From: Synechococcus sp.
GTDB lineage: Bacteria > Cyanobacteriota > Cyanobacteriia > Thermostichales > PCC-7336
Reading direction: 5' to 3'
DNA length: 64,000 bases
NCBI GenBank assembly: GCA_051439605.1
Contig: JBFRWN010000077.1
Span: 8,536 to 72,535, forward strand
Shown here: one piece after another, positions 41,522-64,000 of the stretch
Position numbering within the stretch: the first letter of the stretch is position 1
Layout: each line of letters opens with the position of its first letter
Position numbers and translations under genes: made by a program
The notes under the pieces: generated by a model
Told to the model about the DNA's origin: nothing
The model's input: only the letters and a program-made list of their open reading frames with translations
The model's database searches: none

Positions 41522-42751
41522 CTAGAAGGGGGAAACAGACCGGATGGGGCCGTTGTAGGCAACGGTCGTTTCAAAGGTCGATTTATCAACCACCACCTCC
41601 GATTCAATCGACGGGTTCACAGCGTCAGGAGGCCCTCCCAGAAAGGTGAAGACCCAGCGATCCCCCTCGTCTTTGTAAGGGGCATCGAGGGCGGGGCCAT
41701 GCATACTCACCTCAGCCCGATAGTTTGCGAGACCGCCGTTGAGGCGTTCCGCCGCCTGGCGAGCATAGTTTTTAGCTGTGGTGATTCCAGGTTCAGTCAG
41801 AGGAGCGAAGGGGGTTGTTGCGTCCACAACGGGAACCGCATTGGCTTCGGGAGCAATTGGGGCAGGGTTAGGCTCTGGAGATTGGCTGAGTTGAGCCTCA
41901 GAAGGGCGATCGGTGCCAACATTACTGGTAGATAGTGCAGCCGTGCGAATGGGTCCGTTGTAGATCACGCTAGTTAGCAAAGTCGTTTTATCGACCGCTA
42001 CCTCCGACTCAATCGAGGGGTTCACAGCACCTGGAGCCCCCCCCAGAAAGGTGAAGACCCAGCGATCCCCTTTGTCTTGGTAGGGCGCTTCGAGAGCGGG
42101 GCCATGCATGGCCGCTTCAGCCCGATAGTTTGCGAGACCGCCGTTGAGCTTTTCCGCAGTCTGGCGGGCATAGTTTTTGGCTGTAGTGACATCTCCAGGT
42201 GCAGCCAAAGGGGCATCGAGGGTCGTTGGAGCCACTACGGGCACCGAATTGGGTTCGGGAGCAGTTGGGGCAAGGTTAGTTCGTGGCGATTGACTGAGTT
42301 GAGCATCAGGAGAGCGATCGCCACCATCATCAATGGTAGAAAGTGCAGCAGTGCGAATGGGGCCGTTGTATAGGACGGTGGTCTCTAACGTCACCTTGTG
42401 GACGCTAACTTCGGTTTCCACCGTGAACCGCTGGCTGTCAGGTGCCCCCCCTTGAAACGTGAAAATCCACCGATCGCCTCCATCCCGGTAAGGGGCCTCT
42501 AGAGCCGGGCCATGCATGGCAGCTTCTGCACGATAATTCGATATCCCTCCATTGGCCCGCTCGCCTGCCTGCCGAGCTAAGTTCTTAGAAGCGGTAATCG
42601 TTCCTGGGGTCAGCGGAGGGACTGGGGCGATGAGAGGAGCAGACCCTGGATTGGGAGAAAAGCTAGGCTCAGATATGGGCTTGGCTAAGACAGGAATTGC
42701 AAAGGGCAAAACTGCTGGCGTGAAAAGCAGCAGGGAAACAATCAGTCGCAT
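41522..42751 (-). CDS. Secreted protein with three tandem ~80-aa domains separated by Pro-rich linkers
   Basis: Signal peptide MRLIVSLLLFTPAVLPFAIPVLA; three copies of (A/S)KN(Y/L)ARQ.AE..NGG..NYRAE..MHGPAL..PY.D.GDRW.FTF.GG...YNGPIR. Confidence 0.8.
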   Translation of the reverse strand: MRLIVSLLLFTPAVLPFAIPVLAKPISEPSFSPNPGSAPLIAPVPPLTPGTITASKNLARQAGERANGGISNYRAEAAMHGPALEAPYRDGGDRWIFTFQGGAPDSQRFTVETEVSVHKVTLETTVLYNGPIRTAALSTIDDGGDRSPDAQLSQSPRTNLAPTAPEPNSVPVVAPTTLDAPLAAPGDVTTAKNYARQTAEKLNGGLANYRAEAAMHGPALEAPYQDKGDRWVFTFLGGAPGAVNPSIESEVAVDKTTLLTSVIYNGPIRTAALSTSNVGTDRPSEAQLSQSPEPNPAPIAPEANAVPVVDATTPFAPLTEPGITTAKNYARQAAERLNGGLANYRAEVSMHGPALDAPYKDEGDRWVFTFLGGPPDAVNPSIESEVVVDKSTFETTVAYNGPIRSVSPF

Positions 42752-43102
42752 CGCAAAATCTCCGTTCTGTTGAATCGACATCCGATTCGTCAAACAGCGG
42801 TTGTCTCATGTACGAGTCGGTGGACTCGCCAAGAGCCTCCTCCAACCTTGGTATTTGGGTCCCGCTTGTATTCAATTCGCTGAAAACACAGTTTCCGAGC
42901 GTAACCTATTGAGATTAATTCTGCGATCTTGTACAGACCCAAAAAACGGGAATCCACACAGAAAAACCTGCGGATGTGAGTAAGTTGCGCAACCAATCTG
43001 TGCAACTGCAGTTCTGCTAAAAGCATTACGGACGTAGCGATCGCCCCAGGAATATGTCACCCTAGCCTGTATGCAAATTTTGGAGCGGCATCGCAACGTT
43101 CA

Positions 43103-44478: not shown

Positions 44479-46698
44479 ATGATTTTTTGGGCCAAACCAA
44501 TTGATGGCACGGAGTGGATAGAACTCCCCCCTTCTGGAGGGACAATACTTTCGGGGGTCTACAACATCGCCGTTCAATCCCCTCAGCCCCATTTCACGAT
44601 TATTTCTCACCTCCGCCAGTTCCGTCCCGAGGGAGATCCACCCAAAGAGGTACTCTGGGAGACTCAACATACCAGCCAAACCAACAATGAAGGGATTGGT
44701 TGGGTAGCTCAAGAGATCGAGCTCGGGGAGGGCTGGTGGCAGATTGGCTGCAGCGATGCCGATCTTGTGGCCGAATTATTTGGTGAAAATCCCCAGAACG
44801 CCGTCACGTTCCAGGTGATTGCGGTTACCCAGGCTGGCCCCACCCCAGATCGGTCTGCTCTTCTGGGGGATTTCACAGAGGCTGAGGCCGAACAGACCGC
44901 TGATATTCAGCCAGCTGCCGAACGCTCCGGCAATCTCGGCTCACTCGATACCACAGCAACCCCAACAGAAATCTTCGTAAAGGACAGTGAATGGGGAGCT
45001 GATTTTGAGGAAGGGGTACGCATGATATCTGCCCCCTCCCAGCCAAGGGGGGACTTTTCTTTAGTGCAGTCCCAATTCACAGCACTTCCCGGAGAAGTGG
45101 TAACACTAACAGGACATACCCAAAGATCGGGACAACTATCCATTACTGCTTTCACCGAAAATTCCATTTTGGTGCGGGAAGTCCAGAGGGTACAGCTCTT
45201 AGCTGGAGCTCAAACCTCAGCATTTAGCTTTCGGCTATCGTTACCTAGCACCTGGACAGGCCATCCCTTGACCGGCATTGCCGAGCTTTTTCCCGACGAT
45301 GGCAGAGAACCACTGACCTTCGATTTCACAATCGCGATCGCTGCTGAGACCGCTCCTCCTGGTTCAGAAACAGACTCTTCTGGATCTCTCAACCAAGCAA
45401 AGCTCCAGCCAACTGATTTTGACAAAGCTCAAGACACAACCGTCCCTGACCCCATCTTCCAATCCCCCAACAACCCGATTCCATCGATCAATTGTGTGGA
45501 AAACAAGGATAGTTCAGCCGATCCTCAACCAGAGAACGCCCCCCTCTCGGAGGTGGAAGCAGCGATAGCCGAGTCCCAACCCTACGAGCCCCAATTGGAG
45601 CCTGTTCGTTCTCTAGAAAAAGAGCTTCCCCCAGAAGTTCAACAGTATTTAGAGTTGCAAAGGGACTTGGAGACAGCCACAACACGGTCCGAACTTGCCT
45701 CCCACATCCAGCTACCAGATTGGACACAGACCCCTTCAGAGCCACAACAGCAACAAGAGCAAGCAGCAGACCTCATTGGTCCCGACTCCAGCAATCTCGA
45801 CTCCAGTACCAGCATTGATTCTCAACCCATAGAAGAAGAGCTCCTGTTCCCGGCGATCGCATTTGCCAGCCCCCGCAGCCCCGATCAGACCCTTAACAGG
45901 TTGGTCGAGCTAGCGCGCGAGGCTGCAATTGTAGCAGAGCAAACTCAGCAAACCCATAAACAACACCTCTATCAACAAGAGGAGATCCCCGAGATACTGA
46001 ACGGAGTCATTGGACAAGCCGTGGCATACGCTTCTCCAGCCACTCCGAACCAAGTCGCAAGTCCACAACAGACCCCAGGCCAGTCTCCAATGCTCGCAAG
46101 CATTCGAGAAACCATTGCGCTAGCTGGAGCCCCCCGATCGCTAGAACAACAGCCCGTGCAGCTTGGGCGTAAAAGGCTAGACAACGCAATAGCCAAAAGT
46201 ATTGCCAACGCAGCCACAATCGAGCAGCCTGTCAACCAAGAATCCCGAGAATCCAGCAACCTAGAATCCAGCGACCTAGACTCTGCTGTACCGAAATCCG
46301 CCACTCAAGAATCCCTAGCTCAAGAACCAAAAGATCGGGAAACCAGCCTTGATGATGCCAGCGGACTCGAACTCAGCATCCCAGCTTCATTACGCAGTGG
46401 CGATTTGGTGACTGTAGTATTGCGCTTAACCCATCCAGAATTGCCCGCTTGCATCAAGCTTTGGGTGAACGACATCGAAACCGACAGTGTTATGGATGGT
46501 CCCCGCTGGATTCTAGATTTTACAGAAGACCAAGGAGTGCTCACTGGCGTCACCCACTTAACCGTCCCTAGCCGCGTCCAATTCTTACAATTCAACGCGA
46601 GCGCTTACCACAAGCTTCCATCCCTTGGCGAGCAAAACTCAGAAGGCGAAGAACCCGTAGCAGCAGTGACCTTGGAACGCAGGGTTTCTCCTCGATAG
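44479..46698 (+). CDS. Large hypothetical protein with beta-rich N- and C-terminal regions and an acidic low-complexity centre
   Basis: 739-aa ORF; TNNEG..W...G.WQIGC N-terminus, IKLWV.D...DGPRW C-terminus. Confidence 0.65.
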   Translation: MIFWAKPIDGTEWIELPPSGGTILSGVYNIAVQSPQPHFTIISHLRQFRPEGDPPKEVLWETQHTSQTNNEGIGWVAQEIELGEGWWQIGCSDADLVAELFGENPQNAVTFQVIAVTQAGPTPDRSALLGDFTEAEAEQTADIQPAAERSGNLGSLDTTATPTEIFVKDSEWGADFEEGVRMISAPSQPRGDFSLVQSQFTALPGEVVTLTGHTQRSGQLSITAFTENSILVREVQRVQLLAGAQTSAFSFRLSLPSTWTGHPLTGIAELFPDDGREPLTFDFTIAIAAETAPPGSETDSSGSLNQAKLQPTDFDKAQDTTVPDPIFQSPNNPIPSINCVENKDSSADPQPENAPLSEVEAAIAESQPYEPQLEPVRSLEKELPPEVQQYLELQRDLETATTRSELASHIQLPDWTQTPSEPQQQQEQAADLIGPDSSNLDSSTSIDSQPIEEELLFPAIAFASPRSPDQTLNRLVELAREAAIVAEQTQQTHKQHLYQQEEIPEILNGVIGQAVAYASPATPNQVASPQQTPGQSPMLASIRETIALAGAPRSLEQQPVQLGRKRLDNAIAKSIANAATIEQPVNQESRESSNLESSDLDSAVPKSATQESLAQEPKDRETSLDDASGLELSIPASLRSGDLVTVVLRLTHPELPACIKLWVNDIETDSVMDGPRWILDFTEDQGVLTGVTHLTVPSRVQFLQFNASAYHKLPSLGEQNSEGEEPVAAVTLERRVSPR

Positions 46699-46821
46699 GG
46701 CCTATCAAGCGCTTTCCCATTTTGAAATGCATGGACCTAACTAGGCGTGAATGTAAACACCTGAAATCCCGCTGCATTGCTGACTATGCGAAAGCTGACA
46801 GCTAATGAGTTCCGCTCAACC

Positions 46822-46858
46822 GTTACAAATATTTATGAAGCTCAATCTACCTTATACT
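46822..46858 (+). promoter_or_regulatory. Possible HLR1 (RpaB) site plus -10 box upstream of crtR
   Basis: GTTACAAA-TA-TTTATGAA (46822-46839; second half has 2 mismatches) followed by TATACT (46853-46858). Confidence 0.35.
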
Positions 46859-46977
46859 AAAGTGTCATTTGGCGTTCACCAGTCCACCTCCAGTTTGGTC
46901 TAGCGTCTGACATTTTATAAACGGTTCCCAATAGAATCACCCCTTTAGTAAATCGCTGACTAAATAAGGAGATATTC

Positions 46978-47937
46978 ATGACTATGGCGGGGAAACGAAA
47001 GTCAATCCCACGCGAGTTAGTCGGTGCACCCGATTCGCTGTTCAATCTGAACGTCTATTTATTCTTAGGCTCAATCTGTCTGTTCGTTTCCTGCTTTTTT
47101 GGCTATACAACGTGGAACTGGCCCCGTTGGATGGTGTTCTGGCTCAACTTTGCCGCCCTCTACGTCCTCGGGACCGTTATTCACGACGCTTCCCATGGTT
47201 CTGCCCACAAAATCCGCTGGGTCAACGAAGCAATGGGTCATGGTTCAGCTTTGCTGCAGGGGTTTGTGTATCCCGTTTTTAAATGGGTACATATGGAGCA
47301 CCACGCTAACGTCAACGATCCCGAGAACGATCCCGATCACTATGTATCCACCGGCGGTCCCCTTTGGCTGATTCCGGTACGCTTCTTCTACCACGAAGTA
47401 TTTTTCTTTAAGCGCCAGCTTTGGAAGAAGGGCAAGTACGAGTTTCTAGCTTGGGCTCTCAGCCGTTTGCTAGTGGTCTGTACCTTCATTTTGGCCATTC
47501 ACTACGGCTACACCGACTATGTACTGAACTACTGGCTTCCCCCCGCTTTTATCATGGGGCTTTTATTGGGACTGTTCTTTGACTATCTGCCCCACCGACC
47601 CTTCTTAGAAACTGCCCGTTGGTATAACGCTCGCGTCTATCCCAGCATCATCACCAACATCCTGCTGTTGGGTCAAAACTATCACCTGATTCACCACCTA
47701 TGGCCCACTGTGCCCTGGTACAAGTATCAAGCGGCTTATCGTTCAGCAAAGCCCATTTTGGATGAAAAAGGCTGCGACCAATCTTTAGATATTTGGCGCA
47801 ATGGGAAGGAGATTGGCAGCTTCTTGTATGACTGCGTACTTGGGATCCGCCCCCACTCACATAACCAACCTACTGATGAAGGCGAGAAAACCAATGACAC
47901 TCAGCCTGAGGAAGAGAACAAAACTGCATCTGCATAG
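46978..47937 (+). CDS. crtR: Beta-carotene hydroxylase
   Basis: GTVIHDASH, HMEHH, DPENDPDH, FFDYLPHRPF, QNYHLIHHLWP. Confidence 0.92.
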   Translation: MTMAGKRKSIPRELVGAPDSLFNLNVYLFLGSICLFVSCFFGYTTWNWPRWMVFWLNFAALYVLGTVIHDASHGSAHKIRWVNEAMGHGSALLQGFVYPVFKWVHMEHHANVNDPENDPDHYVSTGGPLWLIPVRFFYHEVFFFKRQLWKKGKYEFLAWALSRLLVVCTFILAIHYGYTDYVLNYWLPPAFIMGLLLGLFFDYLPHRPFLETARWYNARVYPSIITNILLLGQNYHLIHHLWPTVPWYKYQAAYRSAKPILDEKGCDQSLDIWRNGKEIGSFLYDCVLGIRPHSHNQPTDEGEKTNDTQPEEENKTASA

Positions 47938-47977
47938 TCTTTCTGCATCAGGGTAGAGCAGCAATAGCTAAAAAATA

Positions 47978-48003
47978 AGCGATCGCCCAATTGAGCGATC
48001 GCT
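47978..48003. terminator. HIP1-based hairpin downstream of crtR
   Basis: AGCGATCGC-ccaattga-GCGATCGCT with A-rich and T-rich flanks, between convergent genes. Confidence 0.5.
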
Positions 48004-48218
48004 GTTTCATTGGGGGACGCTGAAACAATACAACTAACCTAATTACTCTAGAGAAAGTTTCCGAACAAACGGCGATCGTTGGGTTAGGGGATGGTTAAGA
48101 AACATCCTCAAAAAGTCCCTCGTATACCCAATATCTCGTCAGTAGGTTCGTCTGACTGAGGCATCCATCCTTGCAAATTGGACGATCGTCCTGTGACAAC
48201 ACACAGTCCGAACCAACA

Positions 48219-49469
48219 TCAGGTCAGTGATAAATAATAGCGATCGAGTTTAAATAGTGTCCTCAAGAGAACAGTCGCTCCCTGGACACACTGTTCGGGA
48301 GAGGTATACTCCTCTCCCGAGTGGCTGACGCCCTCTCGACTGGGCACAAAAATCATTCCCATATCTGTAAACCGCCCTATTTCCTGGGCGTCGTGGCTGG
48401 CGCGACTGGGCAAGTGCGTATAGCTGAGTCCCAAGTCTTCACAGCTCTCTACAATCAGTGATTGCACCTCTGCTGTCGCTAAAGTCGGCTTGAGCTCTAA
48501 CTCTGGTTTGATGCGTATTTTGGTTCGGGTAGCCACGGCCACACTTTCAATCTTGCGCTTGAGTTGAGCCAGCATGTGTTCGATCTCTTGTTGGGACAGA
48601 CTGCGCATATCCAAACACATCTCCACAAAACCAGGAACGGTGTTAATCGTATTCGGCCAGACTTGAACCGCACCCACTGTGGCCACCGGATCGCCAGGAA
48701 AATGTCTCGCCATATCTTCCACCGCCAGTATGAGCTGAGCAGCAGTAGTCAGGGCATCCCGGCGCATGTGCATGGGGGTAGTACCTGCATGGTTCGTCTG
48801 TCCTTGAATGGTGATTCGAAAACGCTGCTGGCCAACAATCCCTTCCACCACACCAATATCGCACTCTAGAACCTCTAACACTCCCCCCTGCTCCACATGC
48901 AACTCTAGAAAACAAGCGATATCATCTGACGTGCGGCGGGCTGTAGGTAGCCGCTCCCAGTTTCCCCCGGTTCGACTAAGGCAGTCTTGAATGGAAACAC
49001 CATCAGAGGTGATGTAATGCTCTGGATTTTCAGGGGCAGATCCTGCCATAGATTTTGAGCCCACCATAGTCCGCTCTTCATCTGCAAAGGCAATCACCTC
49101 AAAGGGATGCTGCAGTAGCAGATCGTTCTCTTGCAGAACCCGAGCTACCTCCAATCCGGCTAGAACTCCCAAGGCTCCGTCGAATCGCCCCCCCGACGGA
49201 ACAGTATCGATATGAGAGCCAGTCGCAAGAACGGGCAAATCTGGTTCTAGGCCAGGATAAGTCCCGATCAGATTGCTGGCGGAATCAATGCGGATAGCCA
49301 TACCCGCTTCCTGCATCCACTGGCTAACACGATCGCGAGCCGCGATATCTTCCAATGAGAAGGCCAAACGCCGAACGACCCCATCTTCTTGTCTCCCGAT
49401 CTTGGCGAGCTCATTGACGTTGCTATTGAGGCGATCGCCGTTGATGGTCAGGCCGGTTGTGTTAGTCAT
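48219..49469 (-). CDS. Zn-dependent allantoate amidohydrolase / N-carbamoyl hydrolase (HpxK/AllC-like)
   Basis: GSHIDTV..GGRFDG, ADEE, ELHVEQG, HAGTTPM, SHDA. Confidence 0.88.
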   Translation of the reverse strand: MTNTTGLTINGDRLNSNVNELAKIGRQEDGVVRRLAFSLEDIAARDRVSQWMQEAGMAIRIDSASNLIGTYPGLEPDLPVLATGSHIDTVPSGGRFDGALGVLAGLEVARVLQENDLLLQHPFEVIAFADEERTMVGSKSMAGSAPENPEHYITSDGVSIQDCLSRTGGNWERLPTARRTSDDIACFLELHVEQGGVLEVLECDIGVVEGIVGQQRFRITIQGQTNHAGTTPMHMRRDALTTAAQLILAVEDMARHFPGDPVATVGAVQVWPNTINTVPGFVEMCLDMRSLSQQEIEHMLAQLKRKIESVAVATRTKIRIKPELELKPTLATAEVQSLIVESCEDLGLSYTHLPSRASHDAQEIGRFTDMGMIFVPSREGVSHSGEEYTSPEQCVQGATVLLRTLFKLDRYYLSLT

Positions 49470-49545
49470 TGCTCAAAAGCGATATAAATTCATATCCGTT
49501 TAAAGATTAGCCATGGTTTTCAACACGCTAATCGAGCCCCCTAGC

Positions 49546-49640
49546 TATAGTCTTTGACATTTTAGTTGGGACGTAAGTTTCTATACCCAGTCATAGATTG
49601 GGATAGCTAAAATGTCCTAAGCGACTTGACGGTCGCCATA
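49546..49640 (+). repeat. ~95-bp dispersed intergenic repeat, copy F (contains NtcA-type box)
   Basis: tatagtctttgacattttagttgggacgtaagtttctatacccagtcatagattgggatagctaaaatgtcctaagcgacttgacggtcgccata, 95 bp; internal inverted pair GACATTTTAG/CTAAAATGTC. Confidence 0.78.
49573..49613 (+). promoter_or_regulatory. Putative NtcA-activated promoter
   Basis: GTA-AGTTTCTA-TAC (49573-49586), then 21 nt, then TAAAAT (49608-49613), upstream of the Rieske oxygenase. Confidence 0.5.
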
Positions 49641-49764
49641 TGACCGTTGCCAATACAACAGACACTGTTGCTAGATTAAGTCACGATCGGGGAACGTTTG
49701 GCGAAACTTTCTGTAATCTGAGCACATCGCTGAGCAGTGGTCTGTGTCTGCAATGGGAGATGGT

Positions 49765-50805
49765 ATGACTGCGACTAAAGACAGAACCCAGGTTTATCCC
49801 AGAAACTGCACCTTCTCTCCATCCGATTGGGATGCACTGGCTCCCTTCTGGTATCCAATTGCCTTTAGCCATGACATTGGCAATCGCCCCCATGCCACCA
49901 CGTTGCTGGACCAACGGCTGGTCATTTGGAAAACCGCTGCCGGTCTGTCGGTGGCCAACGATATTTGTCTGCATCGGGGGGTGCCCCTCAGCATGGGACA
50001 TGTGGCAGACGAACATCTAATCTGCAAATACCACGGCTTTCACTACGACGCCGCCGGTCAATGCACCCTAATTCCAGCTAACCCTGCCGCCAGCATTCCC
50101 TCAAAGCTCTGTCTCAGAACCTATCCGGTACGCGAAGCCTACGGTTTGGTATGGACGACTCTCGCTGGAGAAGATACTTCCCCGTTTCCAAAGTTTCCCG
50201 AGTGGAGCGATCTGGATTATCAGCACATACTGCCGGATAGTATCGACCTGGATGCGGCGGCGGGGCGGCAGATGGAGGGGTTTCTGGATGTGGCCCATTT
50301 TGCTTGGGTGCATGCGGAGTCTTTTGGCGATCGCGATAACCCCTACGTACCCAAATATAAGGTTGTCCCTACGGCCCACGGTGTCAGAGCAGAATATCTC
50401 AGTACCGTCAGCAACTTTCCTAAGGGGTTACAGGATCGTGCTCCAACGGATTTTAAGTGGCTACGAGTATTCGACGTTTTCCTCCCCTTCACTGCATTAT
50501 TGCGGGTTCATTTTCCCGATGACGGACGGCTATGTATTCTCAATGCCGCTTCTCCGATGTCCGCCCGCAAAACCCGCGTATTTTGTCCCATCTGCCGCAA
50601 TTTTGATAAGGACCAACCTTTAGAACCGGTGTACGAGTTTAACTACCAAATTTTTAACGAGGATAAAGAGGTAGTGGAGGCTCAATATCCCGAAGATCTG
50701 CCCCTCGACTTGCGAGCCGAGTCACACATTGAAGCGGATAAAACCTCAATTGCCTATCGCAAGGGGCTAGCAGGACTGGGGTTGAGCAAAATATACACGG
50801 CTTGA
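49765..50805 (+). CDS. hpxD: Rieske non-heme iron oxygenase, HpxD-like hypoxanthine/xanthine hydroxylase
   Basis: CLHRG..CKYHG Rieske motif, EGFLDVAHFAWVH Fe site, NAASPMSAR, LPLDL..ESHI.AD; purine-catabolic neighbours; start between 49744 and 49765. Confidence 0.75.
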   Translation: MTATKDRTQVYPRNCTFSPSDWDALAPFWYPIAFSHDIGNRPHATTLLDQRLVIWKTAAGLSVANDICLHRGVPLSMGHVADEHLICKYHGFHYDAAGQCTLIPANPAASIPSKLCLRTYPVREAYGLVWTTLAGEDTSPFPKFPEWSDLDYQHILPDSIDLDAAAGRQMEGFLDVAHFAWVHAESFGDRDNPYVPKYKVVPTAHGVRAEYLSTVSNFPKGLQDRAPTDFKWLRVFDVFLPFTALLRVHFPDDGRLCILNAASPMSARKTRVFCPICRNFDKDQPLEPVYEFNYQIFNEDKEVVEAQYPEDLPLDLRAESHIEADKTSIAYRKGLAGLGLSKIYTA

Positions 50806-50927
50806 AAGCGTAACCTCGTTCAAACAATTCACCTGCTCGATCTTGTTTGAGGAAAATTTTAAGTCATGTCATTGCAATGCAAATCGTTAAGAATTGGCAA
50901 TTACGAGCGCTTGTTTGTTCCGAACAA

Positions 50928-52352
50928 CTAGTCGCGTGGTCCTGGCAAAATCATATTCAAGAACAATGCACACAAGCCACCAGTTGAAATCCCCGATGAG
51001 AAAATGTTCTTCACCAGCGGTGGCATTTGGTCCAACAGGTCAGGAGCATACACAACCCCGAGCCCCAGACCTAAAGACGTTGCCAAAATAATCGACGATC
51101 GCTTCGTAAACCGAATCGCGGACAAAATCCGAATGCCAGCAGCAGCCACACTGCCAAACATCACAATCGTTGCCCCACCCAACACTGCCTGCGGCACCGC
51201 CTGAATCACCGCCCCGATCGCCGGAAATAAGCCAGCAACGATAAAGAAGCCCGCAATGAAATACCCCACGTAGCGGCTGCCCACCCCTGTTAGCTGAATG
51301 ACCCCATTGTTTTGACTAAATGTGGTGTTAGGAAACGTATTCAAGCAGGCAGCAATCAAAGAGTTAATCCCATCCCCTAGCACACCCCCCTTAATCCGGC
51401 GCATATAGACATCTCCCCGAATGGGCTCCCCCGTAATGGCAGAGGTGGCGGTTAAGTCGCCAATCGACTCGATGGTCGTCATCAGAAACAGGAATGCAAA
51501 CGGAATAAAGGCAACGGGGTTAAACCCAAACCCAAACCGAAACGGTACGGGTAAAGAAATCGCAGGCACGCTGCCGAGGGCGCTGAGGTCCACCAGCCCC
51601 ATCACAGAGGCAAACAAGTAACCTACGATCAGTCCTACAGCAATAGACACCATCCTCAAAAACGGATTGCGGCTGCTGTTCAAGACAATGATGGTCACCA
51701 AAACCAACACAGCCAACCCTAAGTTTTGCAGGCTGCCAAAGGTACCGGTCTCCTTTGCCGCAAACCCGCCACCCATCGCCGTAACACCAACGTTAATGAG
51801 GGTCAAACCAATCAGCGATACCACCGTTCCCGTCACCAGGGGGGTAATAATCTTGGCGGCAAACTGAAGAAACCGACTGAAAACAATCTCAATAAACGAG
51901 CCCACAAAGCACAGCCCGAAAATTGTCCCTAGCGCATCCTCCGGCGACGTTCCGCTGGCGATTGCGGCGCTACCCGCCGCAATAATCGGCCCAATAAACG
52001 CAAAACTTGTCCCTTGAATGCTGAGTAAGCCGGAGCCCACGGGTCCGAGCCGTCTCACCTGAATAAAAGTGGCAATCCCCGACACAAACAGCGACATGCT
52101 CACCAAGTAGGCGGTCGTTTCTGCAGCCAACCCCAGAGCTCCGCCAATAACTAAAGAAGGCGTCACAATACCGATGAAACATGCCAGCACGTGCTGCACA
52201 GCTGCAAAAACCGACTGCTGGATCGAGGGCACATCGTTCAAGCCGTAGATCAAATCTGTGGCGGAAGACACGGCAGTTGACAAAGGCTCTTCGGGGGGCG
52301 GCTCTCCAGAATCCAATATCCTTTCCATGCCCAGCTCGTCGATATTTGCCAT
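50928..52352 (-). CDS. NCS2 (NAT) xanthine/uric acid permease
   Basis: QH motif in TM1, ESIGD, NAT signature TFSQNNGVIQLTGVGSR. Confidence 0.92.
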   Translation of the reverse strand: MANIDELGMERILDSGEPPPEEPLSTAVSSATDLIYGLNDVPSIQQSVFAAVQHVLACFIGIVTPSLVIGGALGLAAETTAYLVSMSLFVSGIATFIQVRRLGPVGSGLLSIQGTSFAFIGPIIAAGSAAIASGTSPEDALGTIFGLCFVGSFIEIVFSRFLQFAAKIITPLVTGTVVSLIGLTLINVGVTAMGGGFAAKETGTFGSLQNLGLAVLVLVTIIVLNSSRNPFLRMVSIAVGLIVGYLFASVMGLVDLSALGSVPAISLPVPFRFGFGFNPVAFIPFAFLFLMTTIESIGDLTATSAITGEPIRGDVYMRRIKGGVLGDGINSLIAACLNTFPNTTFSQNNGVIQLTGVGSRYVGYFIAGFFIVAGLFPAIGAVIQAVPQAVLGGATIVMFGSVAAAGIRILSAIRFTKRSSIILATSLGLGLGVVYAPDLLDQMPPLVKNIFSSGISTGGLCALFLNMILPGPRD

Positions 52353-52511
52353 CGCTGCACCTACTTCTTCAATGGCCGTTTTAATTGGGTTGAAGCTAAC
52401 AGCAATACCCTTTGGCGAATGTTTAGAACGAACAATAGTTAGTTTGTCTCATCAGCATTAGGATGCAGGCAAGAGCAGTGGGGTTCCCCGCGAAAAAACA
52501 CGGATTGCAGC

Positions 52512-53672
52512 ATGAACCACCTGAAGGCGATCGTTATTGGAGCAGGGATGGGGGGACTCACCGCCGCCATTGCTTTAGAACAGGTGGGCTATACCATCGA
52601 GATTTACGATCGCGTCCGGGAGCTTCGTCCAGCAGGGGCCGGAATTTCCCTCTGGTCGAATGGGGTGAAGGTGCTCAACCGCTTAGGGTTGGGGGCAGAG
52701 ATTGCTTGCATCGGCGGCCCCATGAAACGCATGAGCTACATTACGAAAGCTGGTGAAGTGCTGAACGACTTTAGCCTGCAGCCGCTGGTGAATACGGTGG
52801 GGCAATGTCCCTATCCGGTGGCGCGAACAGATTTGCAGCGCATGTTGTTGGATGCCTTTGGTCGCGATCGCGTACAGCTCAATTCAAAATGTGTCGGGGT
52901 GGAGCAAACAGACGAGACCGTCACCGCAATCTTTGAGGACGGTCGGCAGGCTATAGGGGATGTACTGGTGGCAGCGGACGGGACTCACTCGTTCATCCGC
53001 AACGTAGTTGTTGGCCAAAAAATCGAGCGGCAATACGGCGGCTACCTTAACTGGAATGGTTTGGTGGAGATGAGCGATCGCCTAGCCCCCCCCTACAGCT
53101 GGGTGATTTACGTCGGGGACGGGCAGCGAGCCTCTATGATGCCGGTGGGGGGCAATCGCTTTTATTTCTTTTTTGATGTTCCGCTTGCTAAGGGAACTCT
53201 GCCACTAGGGGATGCCCGCACAGAACTCTCCCATTATTTCGAGGGGTGGGCGCAGCCGGTGCAAAACTTGATTGGGGAGCTGGATCCTGCCAAAACCAAT
53301 CGGGTGGAGATTCACTACGTAGAACCGTTATCCACCCTAGTCCGTGGACGCATTGCCCTGTTGGGGGATGCCGCACACAGCACGACACCGGATTTGGGGC
53401 AGGGGGGCTGCCAGGCGATCGAGGATGCTTGGGTGCTGACCAACCATCTAGCATCAAGCTCGTTAGGGGTAGCCGATGCCCTGCAGCGGTACCAGGCCGA
53501 CCGCAAAGAGCGCACAGCCACTATTGTGCGTAAAGCCCTAAAACGGGCGCACATGATTCATAACCATGACCCAGCCCGCACCCAACAGTGGTACACAGAA
53601 CTAGCCCGAGAGGATGGATCCAAAATTATGGATGCAATATCGGCAGTGATTCTAGAGGGTCCGCTCCATTAG
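52512..53672 (+). CDS. hpxO: FAD-dependent urate hydroxylase
   Basis: GAGMGG, ISLWSNGVK, PYPVAR, GQRASMMPV, GDAAHSTTPDLGQGGCQAIED, C-terminal GPL. Confidence 0.88.
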   Translation: MNHLKAIVIGAGMGGLTAAIALEQVGYTIEIYDRVRELRPAGAGISLWSNGVKVLNRLGLGAEIACIGGPMKRMSYITKAGEVLNDFSLQPLVNTVGQCPYPVARTDLQRMLLDAFGRDRVQLNSKCVGVEQTDETVTAIFEDGRQAIGDVLVAADGTHSFIRNVVVGQKIERQYGGYLNWNGLVEMSDRLAPPYSWVIYVGDGQRASMMPVGGNRFYFFFDVPLAKGTLPLGDARTELSHYFEGWAQPVQNLIGELDPAKTNRVEIHYVEPLSTLVRGRIALLGDAAHSTTPDLGQGGCQAIEDAWVLTNHLASSSLGVADALQRYQADRKERTATIVRKALKRAHMIHNHDPARTQQWYTELAREDGSKIMDAISAVILEGPLH

Positions 53673-53689
53673 TGGCCTGCACTAACCCG

Positions 53690-56290
53690 CTAGATTTTCA
53701 AATACTTTTGCATCGTCTGAACTGCTGATTTTGACGCCAACCACTCTTCAGCCATCGCAGCATTCATCGGGCGATCGAATAGATACCCCTGGCCAAATTC
53801 GCAGCCTAGTGCAACGATTTGATCTAGCTCACCATGCTCTTCAATTCCTTCAGCGATGACCTTTAATTTCAAGGTGTGTGCCAACGTGGTGATTGCGCGT
53901 GTAATCTCGTAACGTGCTGAGGTACTGTCTATCTGGCTAACAAAGCATCGGGGAACTTTTACGATATCCACGGGTAATTGCTGTAAGTAGGCTAGCGATG
54001 AATATCCAGTACCAAAATCATCAATACTCAATCGAATTCCTTTGCGTCTAATTGCCATCACCGTCCGCATCGTTTCTAGAGACCGCTCCATCAGGGTGCT
54101 TTCTGTAATTTCTAGATGCAGCCGATTTCCCGCTAGCTTATGTCGATCGAGCACTGAATCAAGCTTAGTCAAAAAATAAGGATCGAATAATTGCTTCCCA
54201 GACAAGTTGACGTTGACGGTCAGCCTATCCGAGTGACTGTAGCAACTCTGCCAATATTGAAGGGTTCGGCAAACTTCATTTAGCACCCACTCTCCAATCG
54301 GTTGAATGAGCTGTGAATCTTCAGCAACCTTGATGAAGTGGCCTGGAGTAATTAATCCTTTCTCAGGATGATTCCAACGGATTAAGGCTTCAAATCCTGA
54401 AAGTTGTCCGGTACGCAATGAAACAATTGGCTGATAGTATAACTCGAACTCTTGGTTGTCCAGTGCCCTTCTGAGATCGTTTTCTAGGCTCAACGTGCTT
54501 AAGGCTTTGTCGTGCATAGAGGCATCAAAAATTTCGAAGCGATCTTTCCCTGCCGCTTTGGCTGCATACATTGCCAGATCTGCATCGCGCAGAACATCTA
54601 GCGCATCGCGATGACCTTCCCCTCCTAACACAATCCCAATACTGGCAGTGGCAAAAAAAGTACGATTGTCTATTTTTAGCGGTTGCCGAAGGATTTGCTG
54701 AATACGCTCTGAAAGTACGATGGCGTCTTGCTCTGATTGGATATTTTCAAGCAGAATCGCAAACTCGTCTCCTCCAAGTCTGGCCAAAGTGCCCTTTAAA
54801 GGCATTAGAGTTTGCAAGAGCCGAGAAACTTTCACGAGGAAAAAGTCGCCAGTCATATGTCCATAACTATCGTTAATTATTTTAAATCGATCGAAGTCAA
54901 GAAAAAGAACAGCAAAGTTAGACGCGATATTTCCACGCATTGTCTCTAGGACTTCTGTTAGCCGCTTGAGAAAGAAACTGCGATTGGGCAAGTTTGTCAA
55001 ACCATCGTAACTAGCATCGTGAATTAATTGCCTTGCCATCCAGTTAAACGATGTAGATAAAATTCTCAGTTCGTGAATATTTCCCCGAGGAACTTCTCGA
55101 TTCCAATCACCTTTTGAAATATCATGACTGGCGGTGCTCAGCTGTTTAATTGGCTGCACAACCCAATGAGCAATGATTATTCCTATAGCCAATGCAACTG
55201 CTAATGCCATTAAGCTCAGTTGAGTCGTTGTCCGGGAATTGGCATTGATGCTTGCCATGAAATCACTTTCTGGCACCACCACCACAATCCGCCAATTAAG
55301 TCCCCATTCATCTCGATAGGGAGTAATTTTTGCCAGATGATGTTCTCCTTTGAACTGAAAATTAAAATGATAGGTCCCCTCGATCCTCTCAATTGCACCA
55401 AATTCTTCTTGAAGATATTCAGTTGCCCCTTTAATCAGGGTATTAGAGCTTTGGGTAGCATCCATGCGGGATAAACTGCTCTCTTCATATAAGAGGATTG
55501 GCTCAGCACTAGAAGCGGATACGAGCAAGCCATTCTCTTCCAAAATAAAGACTTCGCCGGTTTTACCAATCTCGATAGTCTGTAAAAAATCAGAAATAGT
55601 CTTTAGGGATAAGTCAACAGCGAAGACTGCTTGCAGAGACCCCGTGCTGTCGTACAGCGGCTGTACAGCAGGCAATGCAATGTTGGGGTACGGAGCAGCC
55701 CAAACGTAGATATCGCCCCAAACAGGGCCGCCAGCCTCTTGGGCATTGGTGTACCAAGGTCGCTGACTCAGGTCATAATTGGCCACCGTAGAGAGTAACT
55801 GGCTCCGAGAACCATCCATATTGGTGGAATAGGTTTCGAATAACCCTTGTGGATTGTCTGCTGTCCAATAGGCAACATTGGGGAGACCTTCGGGGACTTG
55901 CTCGGCACCGACAAAGAGGGTGTCCGATATCCCAGCATAGATGTAGCTAGTGGATGGAAATAGCTGCGTTTGCTGCCAAAAGTGGCGTTCTAACCCCTCG
56001 ATATCCTGTAAATCCAACGTTCCCAGACGAACAGTACTAACGTTGATGCGATTAATCAGATGGGGGTCATTGAGATAATGGTTTAACTGCTGCTGAACGC
56101 GGTTGGTGATCTCAGTATGTAATTGCTCAGCTAGTTCGCTAACCGCTTTTTGACCGTTGCGAAACGAGAGGTAGCCGATCGCGCACATTGCAAGAATGAG
56201 TTCTAGAATGAATGGCCCCGTGATGAGCAGTCTTAATGGAATTCCAGGAGATATATCCCTCGATCTCAATCGTGCAGACAATTTGTGCAT
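53690..56290 (-). CDS. Membrane sensor diguanylate cyclase/phosphodiesterase (dCache_1-HAMP-GGDEF-EAL)
   Basis: Two TM helices flanking a periplasmic domain with YDLSQRPWY; HAMP; RLGGDEF; FEALIRW; DDFGTGYSS. Confidence 0.9.
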   Translation of the reverse strand: MHKLSARLRSRDISPGIPLRLLITGPFILELILAMCAIGYLSFRNGQKAVSELAEQLHTEITNRVQQQLNHYLNDPHLINRINVSTVRLGTLDLQDIEGLERHFWQQTQLFPSTSYIYAGISDTLFVGAEQVPEGLPNVAYWTADNPQGLFETYSTNMDGSRSQLLSTVANYDLSQRPWYTNAQEAGGPVWGDIYVWAAPYPNIALPAVQPLYDSTGSLQAVFAVDLSLKTISDFLQTIEIGKTGEVFILEENGLLVSASSAEPILLYEESSLSRMDATQSSNTLIKGATEYLQEEFGAIERIEGTYHFNFQFKGEHHLAKITPYRDEWGLNWRIVVVVPESDFMASINANSRTTTQLSLMALAVALAIGIIIAHWVVQPIKQLSTASHDISKGDWNREVPRGNIHELRILSTSFNWMARQLIHDASYDGLTNLPNRSFFLKRLTEVLETMRGNIASNFAVLFLDFDRFKIINDSYGHMTGDFFLVKVSRLLQTLMPLKGTLARLGGDEFAILLENIQSEQDAIVLSERIQQILRQPLKIDNRTFFATASIGIVLGGEGHRDALDVLRDADLAMYAAKAAGKDRFEIFDASMHDKALSTLSLENDLRRALDNQEFELYYQPIVSLRTGQLSGFEALIRWNHPEKGLITPGHFIKVAEDSQLIQPIGEWVLNEVCRTLQYWQSCYSHSDRLTVNVNLSGKQLFDPYFLTKLDSVLDRHKLAGNRLHLEITESTLMERSLETMRTVMAIRRKGIRLSIDDFGTGYSSLAYLQQLPVDIVKVPRCFVSQIDSTSARYEITRAITTLAHTLKLKVIAEGIEEHGELDQIVALGCEFGQGYLFDRPMNAAMAEEWLASKSAVQTMQKYLKI

Positions 56291-56595
56291 TTTTACTGGA
56301 GTTATAACGAATGAATCACTGACCGAAATCCGCTCTTTTCTGATTGCATTAACAAATATAGTGACTTGACAGTAGGTAAGAGTATTTCATCGGTCTAAAA
56401 CCATACCGGAAAAAAGATCGGTGTCTGAGTTGAAATAAAATCAGCTATTTAGAACCCCTCAAGGTATAGAAATAACCAGATCGGATGAACAAATGTCGCA
56501 TTGGATAAATAATACCTCCTGTTACCGTTAGCTTGAGTCCAGTTAACTCTTTCAGGTCAAGCGTCCCGCAGAATTGATACTTCTGTAGGCACGTT

Positions 56596-56660
56596 GAGCC
56601 AAGCCCCGATCCTTACTGGACATAGATTTTTTAGTCCTGTCTGAAATGGAAATTGTTATA
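56596..56660 (-). repeat. Partial copy of the ~95-bp dispersed repeat (left part), copy G
   Basis: Reverse complement tataacaatttccatttcagacaggactaaaaaatctatgtccagtaaggatcgggg aligns with the left part of copy F. Confidence 0.6.
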
Positions 56661-56797
56661 AATGTCACGTGTGTTTACAAACAACCGAGATCTTAAGAGC
56701 TGGCTAGGTACCTTCCTCTCTGACCCTCACTTCCTTCATCACGCACTTCTTGGCAGTACTGGGTTCAATCATCGAGACTGAATAGAGCTGGGAAATT

Positions 56798-57175
56798 ATG
56801 GAGATCGGTAAACTGACTACCCACGTGCTTGACACAGCCCACGGATGTCCAGCACGTGGCATTGAAATCGAGTTGTGGCGCTTGCCATCTCCAACCGTCT
56901 CGGATTCGTCTCAAACACTGCTTTTGAAGAAAGTGATTGCCAATGCAGATGGCCGCACCGATGAGCCACTTCTGCAGGAATCCAGTTTTGTGCCAGGAAC
57001 CTACGAGCTACGGTTCTCCTTGGGTGCTTATTTTCAAAGGCGATCGACCCCACTCTCTGACCCACCCTTTTTAGATATCGTCCCCATCCGCTTCTCCATC
57101 GCCGATGCCACCAGCCACTATCACGTCCCCCTGCTATGTTCTCCTTGGTCCTACAGCACCTATCGCGGCAGCTGA
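56798..57175 (+). CDS. uraH: 5-hydroxyisourate hydrolase (transthyretin-like)
   Basis: LTTHVLD, DGR, HYHVPLL, C-terminal YRGS. Confidence 0.95.
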   Translation: MEIGKLTTHVLDTAHGCPARGIEIELWRLPSPTVSDSSQTLLLKKVIANADGRTDEPLLQESSFVPGTYELRFSLGAYFQRRSTPLSDPPFLDIVPIRFSIADATSHYHVPLLCSPWSYSTYRGS

Positions 57176-57307
57176 CTAACCACCACACCGCCTCACAATG
57201 CACCAAACGCTAGTTACTGAGAAGACACAATACACTAGTAGCAAACACAGTCGCCGCAGAAGATGACACACTTGTTGCAGCGCACAAAATTTCGAAGAGA
57301 GCGTTCG

Positions 57308-57781
57308 ATGCGAATTGGCAATGCCTACGATATTCATCGGTTGGTGGAGGGTCGCCGCCTGATATTGGGAGGGGTAGAGATCCCGCACGAGAAAGGATTG
57401 CTCGGCCATAGCGATGCTGATGTATTGACCCACGCCATTATGGACGCCCTGCTAGGAGCGTTAGCCCTTGGGGATATCGGCAAATACTTTCCCCCAGATG
57501 ACCCCGCATGGGAGGGGGCTAACAGCATTGCGTTGCTCAAACAGGTGATGGGATTAGTGGGCGATCGCGGCTGGAAAATTGCCAATATCGATTCGATGGT
57601 GGTCGCGGAACAGCCCAAACTCAAGCCCCATATTGCCACCATTCAAAAACGGCTATCTGAGGCCATGGAATTGCAGCCCGACCAAGTCAGCGTTAAAGCA
57701 ACCACCAACGAAAAGTTAGGGCCAATTGGAGAGAAAGAAGCCATTTGTTCCTATGCTGTGGCCCTGCTGATGCCTATATGA
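57308..57781 (+). CDS. ispF: 2-C-methyl-D-erythritol 2,4-cyclodiphosphate synthase
   Basis: [29 protein letters not shown]. Confidence 0.95.
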
Positions 57782-58488
57782 CAAATTTTCAACAGTTGCC
57801 TCTGGGACTCGCAGAGGTTAGCCAGTCGCTGGTCGATGGAGACTCTGCCGATGGCCCAGTGACTGACCCATCACAGCGCAGGAATCCAACAGCACAACTG
57901 TCCCTACCCCCACTCACAGCCGGAGTGGATGAAGTGGGGCGGGGAGCCTTGTTCGGCCCCGTGGTAGCTGCTGCCGTCATCCTGAGCCCCGATCGAGAGC
58001 AATACCTGCAGGAAATCGGGGTCAAAGATAGCAAAGCCCTCTCCCACAAGCGACGGGAGGCCCTAGCGCGAACCATTCGGGAGACCGCTGTAACGTGGGG
58101 ATTGGGGTGGGCTCATGCCCGCGAGATCGATCGCATCAACATTCTGCAGGCCACGTTTGTCGCGATGCACCGTGCGTTGTCGCGGCTGGTTCCTGCTCCC
58201 GAACACTGTCTCATCGACGGAAATAAAACTATCCCTCAAGTGAACCTGCCCCAAACGGCCCTGGTTAAAGGGGACAGTAAATCTTTGGCGATCGCCAGCG
58301 CCAGTATTTTGGCCAAAGTCCACCGCGATCGCTGGATCGTTGCCCTGGCAGAGCACTACCCCGGATACGCCCTAGATTCCAACAAAGGATACGGCAGCGC
58401 CATCCACAGGCAAGCCCTGAAAGTACGTGGTCCCACCCCCGAGCATCGACTCTCCTTTGCCCCCTGCCAACCTCAGATACTGGAGTAG
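57778..58488 (+). CDS. rnhB: Ribonuclease HII
   Basis: [35 protein letters not shown] overlap with ispF. Confidence 0.93.
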
Positions 58489-62480: not shown

Positions 62481-64000
62481 ATGACAGCGTCTCAGTTCCG
62501 TTTGCAGTTAACTGCTGACAAAATTTTGCTGAGGGAGTCACTGATGGTGCAGAGTTTTAACCAATTCGGGGGAATTAGCGATCGGATATCTGCAACCGCT
62601 CTTCTCAGGCTAACGGCCAAACTCTTGCCACTATTCTCCGCAGTCACAGCTGCTGGCCTGCTGGCTGCTGGTCCTGTCCTTGCTCAAACCACCTCTACAC
62701 CTGAGCAAGAAGATGCAGCCACCGCCGATTCCCTAAGGGTGAGCACCTCCACGGAAGCTCTACGCATCAATCCACAATTCCGCGTCGGTGCCATCACCGA
62801 GTCAGGAGGGATCCCGGCCTCTCTCAATGCGTTTGATGGGTTCTTCCCCGTTCTGCAAACTCCGGGCACATCTATCACTTACCTCAACCCGCGCCTTAAC
62901 ATCGATTTCGATGACGAGAATCGTTTAGGGGGATCGCTCTTATTCGGTCACCGCAGCTACAGCCCAGATCAACAGCGAATTTTGGGTGGATACTTGGGTT
63001 TAGATGTCAGGGATACAGGCGAGAATGTATTTCCACAAATTGGTTTCGGGTTTGAACGGCTAGGTAAGCACTGGGATATTCGTGCCAACGGTTACGTCCC
63101 GGTGGGAGATACTCGCCAACGCATAGATCGCGAAGTGTTTGCCTCCAGCCAGACATCCATCGCTATCGGAGAACCGACGTTTTCTGGCAATCTCCTGTCC
63201 AGTAATGTCACCAGTACCACCACAGATACTCGCACCCAGATTGATCGCCTAGAAGCTGCACTGGGTGGATTTGATGTGGAGGCGGGGACGCGGCTAGTCA
63301 GCTGGAACGAGCACGGCGAAATGCGCTTGTACGGTGGACTCTACTATCTGGGAGGCCACGATGTTAGCAGTATTGGTGGACGAGGTCGGCTAGAAATTGT
63401 CCCCACCGAATCCATCCGCTTGATGGCTGGCATCCAGGGGGATCCGGTCTTTGACGTGCGGGGATTTTTCTCGGCGAGTTTTCTGTTGCCGACTCCAAAA
63501 GCTTTACAAACAGACACCGACCCCGATGAAAAGGCGGAGGCGATCGCCACATTGGGGGAAACCGTTACCCGTTTGGCGGATCCGGTGGCGCGGGACTTCA
63601 ATGTAGTGGTGGAGGAACAGCAAGAGGTTGATACTACCGTTGCAACTACTTCCATTTCAGAAGAGTTTGTCTTCCGTAATCCCGAGACCGGCGCTGCTTG
63701 GCGTTTTACTCACGTTACTTCGGGGGGTAATAGCGACGGAACCTTCGAGGACCCATTTGGAACCTTAGAAGAAGCATTGGTCAGCGGACTGCAGCAGGAT
63801 GGCAACGATGTTGTTTACGTTCGGCTGGGAGACGAAGCGATTCCAGGCATCGACCTCATAGCTGCAGGTGTGCAAAACATCCAAATTTTGTCAGATGGTC
63901 CCTTGCAAACTCTGCCGATACAGCCATTTAATGGGGAAAGTACCGTTGAAATCCCCTTCTCCAACCGTGGCCAGTTGACCCAAGTGACTGCTCCGGTGGT
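62481..64000 (+). CDS. Inverse-autotransporter (invasin/intimin-type beta-barrel) surface protein, truncated at the window edge
   Basis: Open frame from ATG 62481 (absent from the ORF track); signal peptide ending GPVLA; GFFPVLQTPG, GHRSY, GGYLGLDVRDTG, FPQIGFGFERLG..WDIRANGYVPVG; later GNSDGTFEDPF. Confidence 0.75.
   Translation, partial: MTASQFRLQLTADKILLRESLMVQSFNQFGGISDRISATALLRLTAKLLPLFSAVTAAGLLAAGPVLAQTTSTPEQEDAATADSLRVSTSTEALRINPQFRVGAITESGGIPASLNAFDGFFPVLQTPGTSITYLNPRLNIDFDDENRLGGSLLFGHRSYSPDQQRILGGYLGLDVRDTGENVFPQIGFGFERLGKHWDIRANGYVPVGDTRQRIDREVFASSQTSIAIGEPTFSGNLLSSNVTSTTTDTRTQIDRLEAALGGFDVEAGTRLVSWNEHGEMRLYGGLYYLGGHDVSSIGGRGRLEIVPTESIRLMAGIQGDPVFDVRGFFSASFLLPTPKALQTDTDPDEKAEAIATLGETVTRLADPVARDFNVVVEEQQEVDTTVATTSISEEFVFRNPETGAAWRFTHVTSGGNSDGTFEDPFGTLEEALVSGLQQDGNDVVYVRLGDEAIPGIDLIAAGVQNIQILSDGPLQTLPIQPFNGESTVEIPFSNRGQLTQVTAPV

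Follow-up and report, generated by a model that had tools for sequence, protein, structure and literature searches.

A predicted purine scavenging locus

The 64,000-nucleotide window analysed here, the whole stretch taken from contig JBFRWN010000077.1 of Synechococcus sp., contains at 48219..57175 five purine catabolism open reading frames (ORFs) in strict alternation of strand, one of which encodes a Rieske non-heme iron oxygenase of the HpxD type. Sequence comparison makes it likely that these genes belong to an hpx-type route of purine scavenging like that of Klebsiella, divided among contigs and induced by nitrogen starvation, in which HpxD would be fed by a shared electron carrier. The 4.9-Mb genome (G000; 99.98% complete, 4.1% contaminated) is that of a cyanobacterium: NtcA scores over its cut-off, PetH is present and the closest relatives are cyanobacterial. 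An earlier reading of the window, made from its letters alone (the sequence-only reading), had named five purine genes within 9 kb on alternating strands, and ORF positions, curated models and domains bear it out:

48219..49469, minus strand: M20 zinc amidohydrolase of 416 aa, probably an allantoate amidohydrolase (HpxK/AllC role); NF006771 426 bits (cut-off 399), TIGR01879 over cut-off
49744..50805 (GTG start, 353 aa) or 49765..50805 (ATG start, 346 aa), plus strand: HpxD-type Rieske non-heme iron oxygenase with Rieske and VanA_C domains
50928..52352, minus strand: NCS2 xanthine/urate permease (HpxP/PbuX-like); TIGR03173 pbuX 437 (cut-off 414), 44% to Klebsiella hpxP
52512..53672, plus strand: FAD-dependent urate hydroxylase HpxO; NF033623 602 (cut-off 500)
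56798..57175, plus strand: 5-hydroxyisourate (HIU) hydrolase HpxT/UraH; TIGR02962 123 (cut-off 87), C-terminal YRGS

Identity of the Rieske oxygenase

The window Rieske protein is 48% identical to the annotated HpxD of K. pneumoniae and 55% to that of Paraburkholderia, against 30-31% to the caffeine-type demethylases NdmA/NdmB (those of Paraburkholderia caffeinilytica, with identities verified against PDB). When it was compared with plasmid records by tblastn, a block of matches at 47-56% identity was followed, among the matches listed, by full-length ones at 37% or less; several of the former are annotated as 'molybdenum cofactor-independent xanthine hydroxylase subunit HpxD', and one of the listings comprised the best 60 of 110 records. 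In phylogenetic trees the protein falls in one branch with HpxD that excludes NdmA/B, with support of 98/94 (37 rows), or 98/97 in a 17-row tree built under a simpler model; it does not lie among non-purine oxygenases. Two results weigh against this placement: the support dropped to 82/82 in a 23-row taxon set, and the approximately unbiased (AU) test against a clade of cyanobacterial and Ndm proteins was borderline (p 0.0485).

The Rieske ligands (C75/H77/C94/H97) and the 2-His-1-Asp iron site (D182/H185/H190/D307) are invariant. Identity to Klebsiella HpxD is higher in the catalytic domain (56%) than in the Rieske domain (44%), and this order is reversed with NdmA (30% and 40%). Seven pocket residues of NdmA, taken from bioRxiv 2021.12.17.472166 and mapped by alignment, correspond to F180, F186, R241, I265, N300, I303 and F304 in the window protein and to F, F, R, I, N, V and F in Klebsiella HpxD, so that the two HpxD pockets are identical at 6/7 mapped positions with one I/V change; relative to NdmA, 6/7 of the purine-pocket positions are retained or show a conservative substitution. 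NdmA F223 is replaced by Arg and N167 by Gly in the window protein, in Klebsiella HpxD and in 82/82 cyanobacterial and 7/7 other proteobacterial HpxD-like rows, the F223 column being less sure because an alignment gap precedes it. The AlphaFold model (mean predicted local distance difference test, pLDDT, 73.5) best matched GxtA/SxtT (template modelling score, TM, about 0.8; 30-31% identity) and NdmA, and Klebsiella HpxD has by sequence the same nearest structures (GxtA/SxtT and the NdmA group); no HpxD structure was among the PDB matches. Taken together, these features suggest that the window enzyme is a molybdenum-independent (hypo)xanthine hydroxylase.

Absence of HpxE and candidate electron donors

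The sequence-only reading had proposed purine catabolism by an HpxD-type enzyme lacking its reductase HpxE, and this holds for the genome as a whole, since the protein groups with HpxD and a search of the 99.98%-complete assembly for a cognate reductase found none. BLAST, phmmer, profile and Pfam searches of G000 detected no HpxE and no reductase of the phthalate dioxygenase reductase (PDR)/VanB type. The intact Klebsiella HpxE matched solely ferredoxins, via its C-terminal domain; a profile built from proteins of the PDR type and FNR-Fer2 proteins of cyanobacteria recovered only PetH and small iron-sulfur proteins; and the PF00175 search returned PetH only. An NdmD-type reductase was likewise not found in the genome.

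The same picture was obtained in relatives. An HpxE orthologue was found in 0/51 hpxD-bearing cyanobacterial genomes, a set made up of G000, G005, G017 and 48 of the 80 relatives' loci (longer contigs preferred; the completeness of the 48 is unstated). Weak HpxE matches in 13 of them were 11 FNR-Fer2 proteins of other families (24-29%, whereas genuine partners show 38-57%) and two plain ferredoxins. None of 82 distinct hpxD loci (84 examined minus two duplicates), many of them on short contigs, has an HpxE-type gene beside hpxD; one FNR-Fer2 gene lies 10 kb off and one ferredoxin 3 kb off. The idea of a dedicated ferredoxin gene in the vicinity was discarded, as 1/42 loci has one near hpxO and 1/82 near hpxD. 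Among proteobacteria, hpxD partners are of the PDR type (Pantoea, Komagataeibacter), a rubredoxin plus reductase (Paraburkholderia) or none adjacent (Rhizobium). In the Paraburkholderia plasmid (L005:9950-12373), hpxD is followed by a rubredoxin and a rubredoxin-reductase-like flavoprotein that replace hpxE; for a Rieske enzyme such a donor chain is unusual.

Without a dedicated reductase, cyanobacterial HpxD probably takes its electrons from a shared carrier. In G000 the four other Rieske oxygenases also have no PDR-type reductase, so lacking one is usual in this genome. Two of them stand with a ferredoxin-domain gene in a cluster on contig C16 (L019:3602-11931), which probably belongs to lipid or secondary metabolism. 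The plastid Rieske oxygenases PAO, CAO, TIC55, PTC52 and CMO resemble the window HpxD in having no cognate reductase, although their substrates are other and their sequences distant; they are already described as ferredoxin-dependent (PMC6006212), which makes a missing reductase the default in phototrophs. Moreover, a ferredoxin domain of the plant type docks on NdmA (PMC12445004; PDB 6icm_D). By this analogy, the likeliest electron source of HpxD, to which we give a roughly even chance, is a plant-type ferredoxin (PetF or one of its paralogues) that receives its electrons from photosystem I or PetH.

Two points count against PetF. Spinach ferredoxin/FNR did not drive chlorophyllide a oxygenase in vitro and VanB did (PMC9615114), and G000 encodes two small Rieske ferredoxins (contigs C14 and C124) and a glutathione reductase (GR)-type reductase. 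The overall charge is similar in cyanobacterial and proteobacterial HpxD, which therefore carry no electrostatic signature of ferredoxin use. A complex prediction with two HpxD copies and PetF scored 0.22 (mark 0.32) with controls not folded, and was not used as evidence.

The Rieske ferredoxins raise another possibility, which appears unlikely though it is the best placed of the alternatives, namely that HpxD is fed not by PetF but from NAD(P)H through a GR-type flavoprotein and a small Rieske-type ferredoxin. G000 has the parts for such a chain (a Pyr_redox_2 reductase at C52:4534-5838 and the two ferredoxins), three of the four 530-560-aa matches inspected in relatives are Rieske-ferredoxin/reductase fusions, and the rubredoxin pair behind the Paraburkholderia hpxD illustrates how HpxD partners vary. 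However, a true orthologue of the C52 reductase occurs in only 1/50 other hpxD genomes, on which ground it was rejected as a family-wide partner; fusion-size matches were present in only about 16/50 hpxD genomes and in hpxD-negative genomes too; and no three-component reductase or fusion gene lies near hpxD in the 82 loci. Several cyanobacteria carry fusions of this kind (~540 aa; L231, L232, L233), and no oxygenase that might be their partner is evident close by.

Remaining steps of the proposed pathway

The sequence-only reading had noted that the window is without an HpxE-type reductase, uraD or allantoinase, and had called for uraD, puuE and xdh to be looked for genome-wide. The window indeed lacks the three; uraD and puuE are both in G000 on other contigs (C129 and C98), and xdh was not found. 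A hydantoin/allantoin racemase gene (45% to the Klebsiella ORF) is also on C98, urease genes lie on C77 just beyond the window edge, and an adenosine deaminase-family gene is present. HpxO, HIU hydrolase, 2-oxo-4-hydroxy-4-carboxy-5-ureidoimidazoline (OHCU) decarboxylase and allantoinase, which make up the oxidative urate pathway, all score over their curated cut-offs. In an alignment of HpxO, R204 of the K. pneumoniae enzyme, a residue with a catalytic role, corresponds to R206 of the window protein; the two are 51% identical, and the window HpxO scores 421 bits to PDB 3rp6. No MoCoBD_1 protein or XdhB was found in G000 by family and profile searches. Lack of the molybdenum cofactor (Moco) was dismissed as the reason for having HpxD, MoeA being present.

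The proposed route takes as its model that of Klebsiella, as described in PMC13751858 and PMC7373994. The NCS2 permease would import xanthine, hypoxanthine or urate, and HpxD would turn (hypo)xanthine into urate by two molybdenum-free hydroxylations, using O2 and two electrons. HpxO (NAD(P)H, O2) would then form HIU and the HIU hydrolase OHCU, from which UraD would give (S)-allantoin, and the racemase and PuuE allantoate. The M20 enzyme would free NH3 and CO2, yielding ureidoglycine, and this would be broken down to glyoxylate, NH3 and urea, with urease liberating the remaining nitrogen.

The M20 enzyme belongs to the dimeric amidohydrolases, and its occurrence follows that of the urate pathway: an orthologue occurs in 49/50 hpxD genomes and 15/15 hpxO-positive, hpxD-negative genomes (64/65 combined) and in 0/15 hpxO-negative ones. 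The K. pneumoniae ORF in hpxK position is 35% identical to it. Among solved structures it comes closest to an L-N-carbamoylase, at 310 bits against 188 for E. coli AllC, and its score is under the AllC equivalog cut-off. It is probably an allantoate amidohydrolase, with ureidoglycolate or N-carbamoyl amino acids as the other candidate substrates.

Several gaps weigh against a complete route of this kind. Ureidoglycine aminohydrolase was not found in G000, the HpxJ-like aminotransferase (42%) stays under every family cut-off and the ureidoglycolate lyase match is weak, which leaves the lower pathway uncertain; in addition, no guanine or 8-oxoguanine deaminase in G000 scores over cut-off. On C14 (L200:1759-3619), the gene of this HpxJ-like aminotransferase is preceded, ~330 bases away on the same strand, by one for a small Rieske ferredoxin. 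A stand-alone allophanate hydrolase C-terminal (AH_C/GGACT) protein is encoded beside hpxO in 8/42 loci (in G000 on C69, L156:3794-4210; elsewhere in L146, L183, L184, L187, L190, L192, L195 and L196), often accompanied by the amidohydrolase or puuE gene, and is a candidate for the ureidoglycine/oxalurate step. A second organic-nitrogen cluster on C49:1000-8000 (L159) encodes an ABC transporter, an M20 deacylase and an allophanate hydrolase; the start of another ORF in it presumably resembles isochorismatase/biuret hydrolase.

Putative promoter of hpxD

Two NtcA-like sequences were identified upstream of hpxD:

49646-49659 and 49682-49687, plus strand: conserved NtcA-type class II promoter (GT-N10-AC, 22-nt spacer, -10-like hexamer), from de novo motif sampling
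49573-49586 and 49608-49613, plus strand: canonical NtcA site GTA-N8-TAC, followed after 21 nt by a TAN3T box, both in the spacer between the divergent amidohydrolase gene and hpxD

Motif sampling before hpxD yielded a conserved GTTAC-N4-GTAAC-like site, which is 49646-49659 in the window. It was scored as GT-N10-AC-N21..23-nAnnnT; a class II promoter is defined in PMC3898017 by GT-N10-AC, 21-23 nt and a -10 box. This pattern lies upstream of hpxD in 48/81 relatives, compared with 13.6+-3.2 in shuffles (max 22), and precedes 111/685 (16%) other genes of the same loci. Before hpxO the signal is weak (12/41 versus 6.5+-2.3, max 14). A perfect GTA-N8-TAC is found 239 bases upstream of puuE in G000 (C98, L008).

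G000 thus has both ntcA and a sequence with the features of an NtcA class II promoter, and the conserved motif points to NtcA-type activation and would support control by nitrogen starvation. On the other side, the strict GTA-N8-TAC/TAN3T pattern, of which the 4.9-Mb genome holds 53 in full, was present in 3/75 relatives, which is chance level; as the strict consensus is not conserved, another regulator of the CRP family could own the motif.

Distribution in cyanobacteria

In a sample of the phylum, hpxD was found in 4/250 genomes and hpxO in 19/250, the latter being present in 4/4 hpxD genomes and in 15/246 others. Of the 51 hpxD genomes, 47 have hpxO over cut-off, 48 have uraD, 36 have a member of the 8-oxoguanine deaminase family and 17 have XdhB. 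Since kin are not independent, these co-occurrence figures are counts and not tests. XdhB was over cut-off in 4/15 hpxO-positive, hpxD-negative genomes. The molybdenum independence put forward by the sequence-only reading needs a qualification: no xanthine dehydrogenase (Xdh) was found in G000, but the 17/51 genomes with both weigh against HpxD as a plain Xdh substitute, and its replacing Xdh throughout cyanobacteria was rejected on these counts. Cultured hpxD-bearing relatives include Nodosilinea nodulosa PCC 7104, with Xdh, and Adonisia turfae CCMR0081, in which XdhB was not found.

The gene order is not kept. Within 10 kb of hpxD, the 82 loci have hpxO in 5, uraD in 5, HIU hydrolase in 3, this NCS2 permease in 3, puuE in 3 and the amidohydrolase in 2, whereas 42 loci around hpxO (32 of them from hpxD genomes) have HIU hydrolase in 27, uraD in 16, NCS2 in 11 and the amidohydrolase in 7. 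From these neighbourhoods, the 9-kb layout was rejected as a conserved operon, and the cluster conservation that the sequence-only reading had raised did not materialize. Deaminase genes near hpxD belong to the 8-oxoguanine family in 16 loci and to guanine deaminase in 12, with either in 27; the commonest hpxD neighbour is the PRK08203 '8-oxoguanine deaminase' family gene (16/82 loci, within L030-L113), mostly directly downstream.

This neighbour could be due to a shifted substrate, HpxD oxidizing guanine at C8 to 8-oxoguanine, which the PRK08203-family deaminase would turn into urate, or performing one hydroxylation only. Such a shift would account for HpxD being kept beside Xdh in 17/51 genomes, and the deaminase family is present in 36/51. 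Nevertheless, we regard it as doubtful: G000 retains hpxD without an 8-oxoguanine-family deaminase, ordinary guanine deaminase, whose product is xanthine, adjoins hpxD in 12 distinct loci, the pocket equals that of Klebsiella HpxD at all mapped positions bar one I/V, and 8-oxoguanine deaminase is a family label only.

Two plasmids outside the cyanobacteria carry related arrangements. In Acinetobacter (L116:5555-9035), two divergent HpxD-like paralogues, possibly one per hydroxylation step, flank a LysR gene close to hpxO, allantoicase and ureidoglycolate lyase genes. In Pseudomonas putida (L006:7995-17023), hpxD and hpxO have as neighbours a gene for a 2-oxoglutarate oxygenase and another set of Rieske oxygenase and reductase genes, which appears split and resembles part of an ndm cluster.

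Other features of the window

One further gene, which the sequence-only reading does not mention, lies within the locus:

53690..56290, minus strand: dCache-HAMP-GGDEF-EAL cyclic di-GMP (c-di-GMP) signalling protein, 2.6 kb; Pfam, GGDEF and EAL motifs intact

With 45.5% GC against 52-56% in the purine genes, it is probably foreign to the purine pathway. As it parts hpxO from the HIU hydrolase gene, the tight group consists of four genes in 5.5 kb. The permease gene and hpxO are divergently placed, and the Klebsiella record has the same layout. A scan of 46000-58000 gave no Rfam match, and hence no xanthine riboswitch at the gathering threshold. For three long window ORFs, the thresholds applied gave no match in Pfam or NCBIfam: 44479-46698 (739 aa), 41522-42793 (423 aa) and 62481-63998 (>506 aa).

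Comparison with known systems and significance

The pathway and every enzyme family in it are already known. The closest system is hpx of Klebsiella pneumoniae/K. oxytoca (hpxDE, hpxR, hpxO, hpxPQT; hpxAB, hpxKJ), which like G000 has no Xdh. Identities between the two are 48% for HpxD, 44% for HpxP, 51% for HpxO, 33% for HpxT, 31% for HpxQ, 60% for PuuE, 45% for the racemase and 35% for the HpxK-position ORF. Unlike Klebsiella, G000 has no HpxE, no HpxR orthologue (best LysR matches 21-26%), no hpxX/hpxZ match and no guaD; an NtcA-type promoter stands in place of LysR control, and the genes are spread over several contigs, with the hpxQ counterpart elsewhere. The XdhAB route makes the same inferred net conversion to urate but needs Moco and yields electrons, whereas HpxD would consume O2 and electrons.

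The cyanobacterial SxtT/GxtA, the best structural matches of the window HpxD (~30% identity), are tailoring enzymes of secondary metabolism without purine-pathway context; they were assayed with the non-native reductase VanB (PMC7293229). NdmA/NdmB with NdmD share the Rieske fold subgroup and the purine-stacking pocket positions, but at about 30% identity the window HpxD sits in a separate branch, has Arg for F223 and has no NdmD-type reductase. Methylxanthine N-demethylation, which the sequence-only reading had offered as an alternative and which would channel caffeine-type compounds into the urate pathway, is accordingly very improbable: although NdmA/B belong to the solved structures nearest to the enzyme and share most of the purine-contacting positions with it, and the AU rejection is only borderline, identity is 30-31% to NdmA/B against 48-55% to annotated HpxD, Klebsiella HpxD scores against NdmA equally well, Arg replaces the hydrophobic F223 throughout the HpxD-like rows, and no part of the ndm cluster (three oxygenases, NdmD, formaldehyde genes) recurs beside cyanobacterial hpxD.

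No study of HpxD in cyanobacteria was found in the full-text literature searched, which covers main texts and few subscription papers. The novelty lies in a cyanobacterial HpxD group that has no reductase, is preceded by an NtcA-type promoter and often occurs beside Xdh; enzymatic activity of its members and growth on purines are putative. Purines are a cross-fed nitrogen pool, and a marine study casts cyanobacteria as exporters (bioRxiv 2024.02.09.579562). The present findings point to one cyanobacterial group as NtcA-controlled purine consumers. A reductase-less, possibly ferredoxin-fed HpxD also offers a simple handle on the mechanism of the enzyme, and the cultured relatives make the question directly approachable.

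The findings bear, moreover, on whether phototrophs spare molybdenum through a route that consumes O2 and electrons. Tentatively, and with rather less confidence than an even bet would express, we propose that in a mostly Leptolyngbya/Nodosilinea/Phormidesmis-type lineage HpxD provides a light-driven, molybdenum-free step fed directly by photosystem I through ferredoxin and switched on by NtcA, a molybdenum-sparing daytime route beside Xdh. If so, HpxD would turn surplus photosynthetic reductant and O2 into a nitrogen gain from environmental purines, and would be kept for this beside the molybdenum-dependent Xdh in a third of the genomes.

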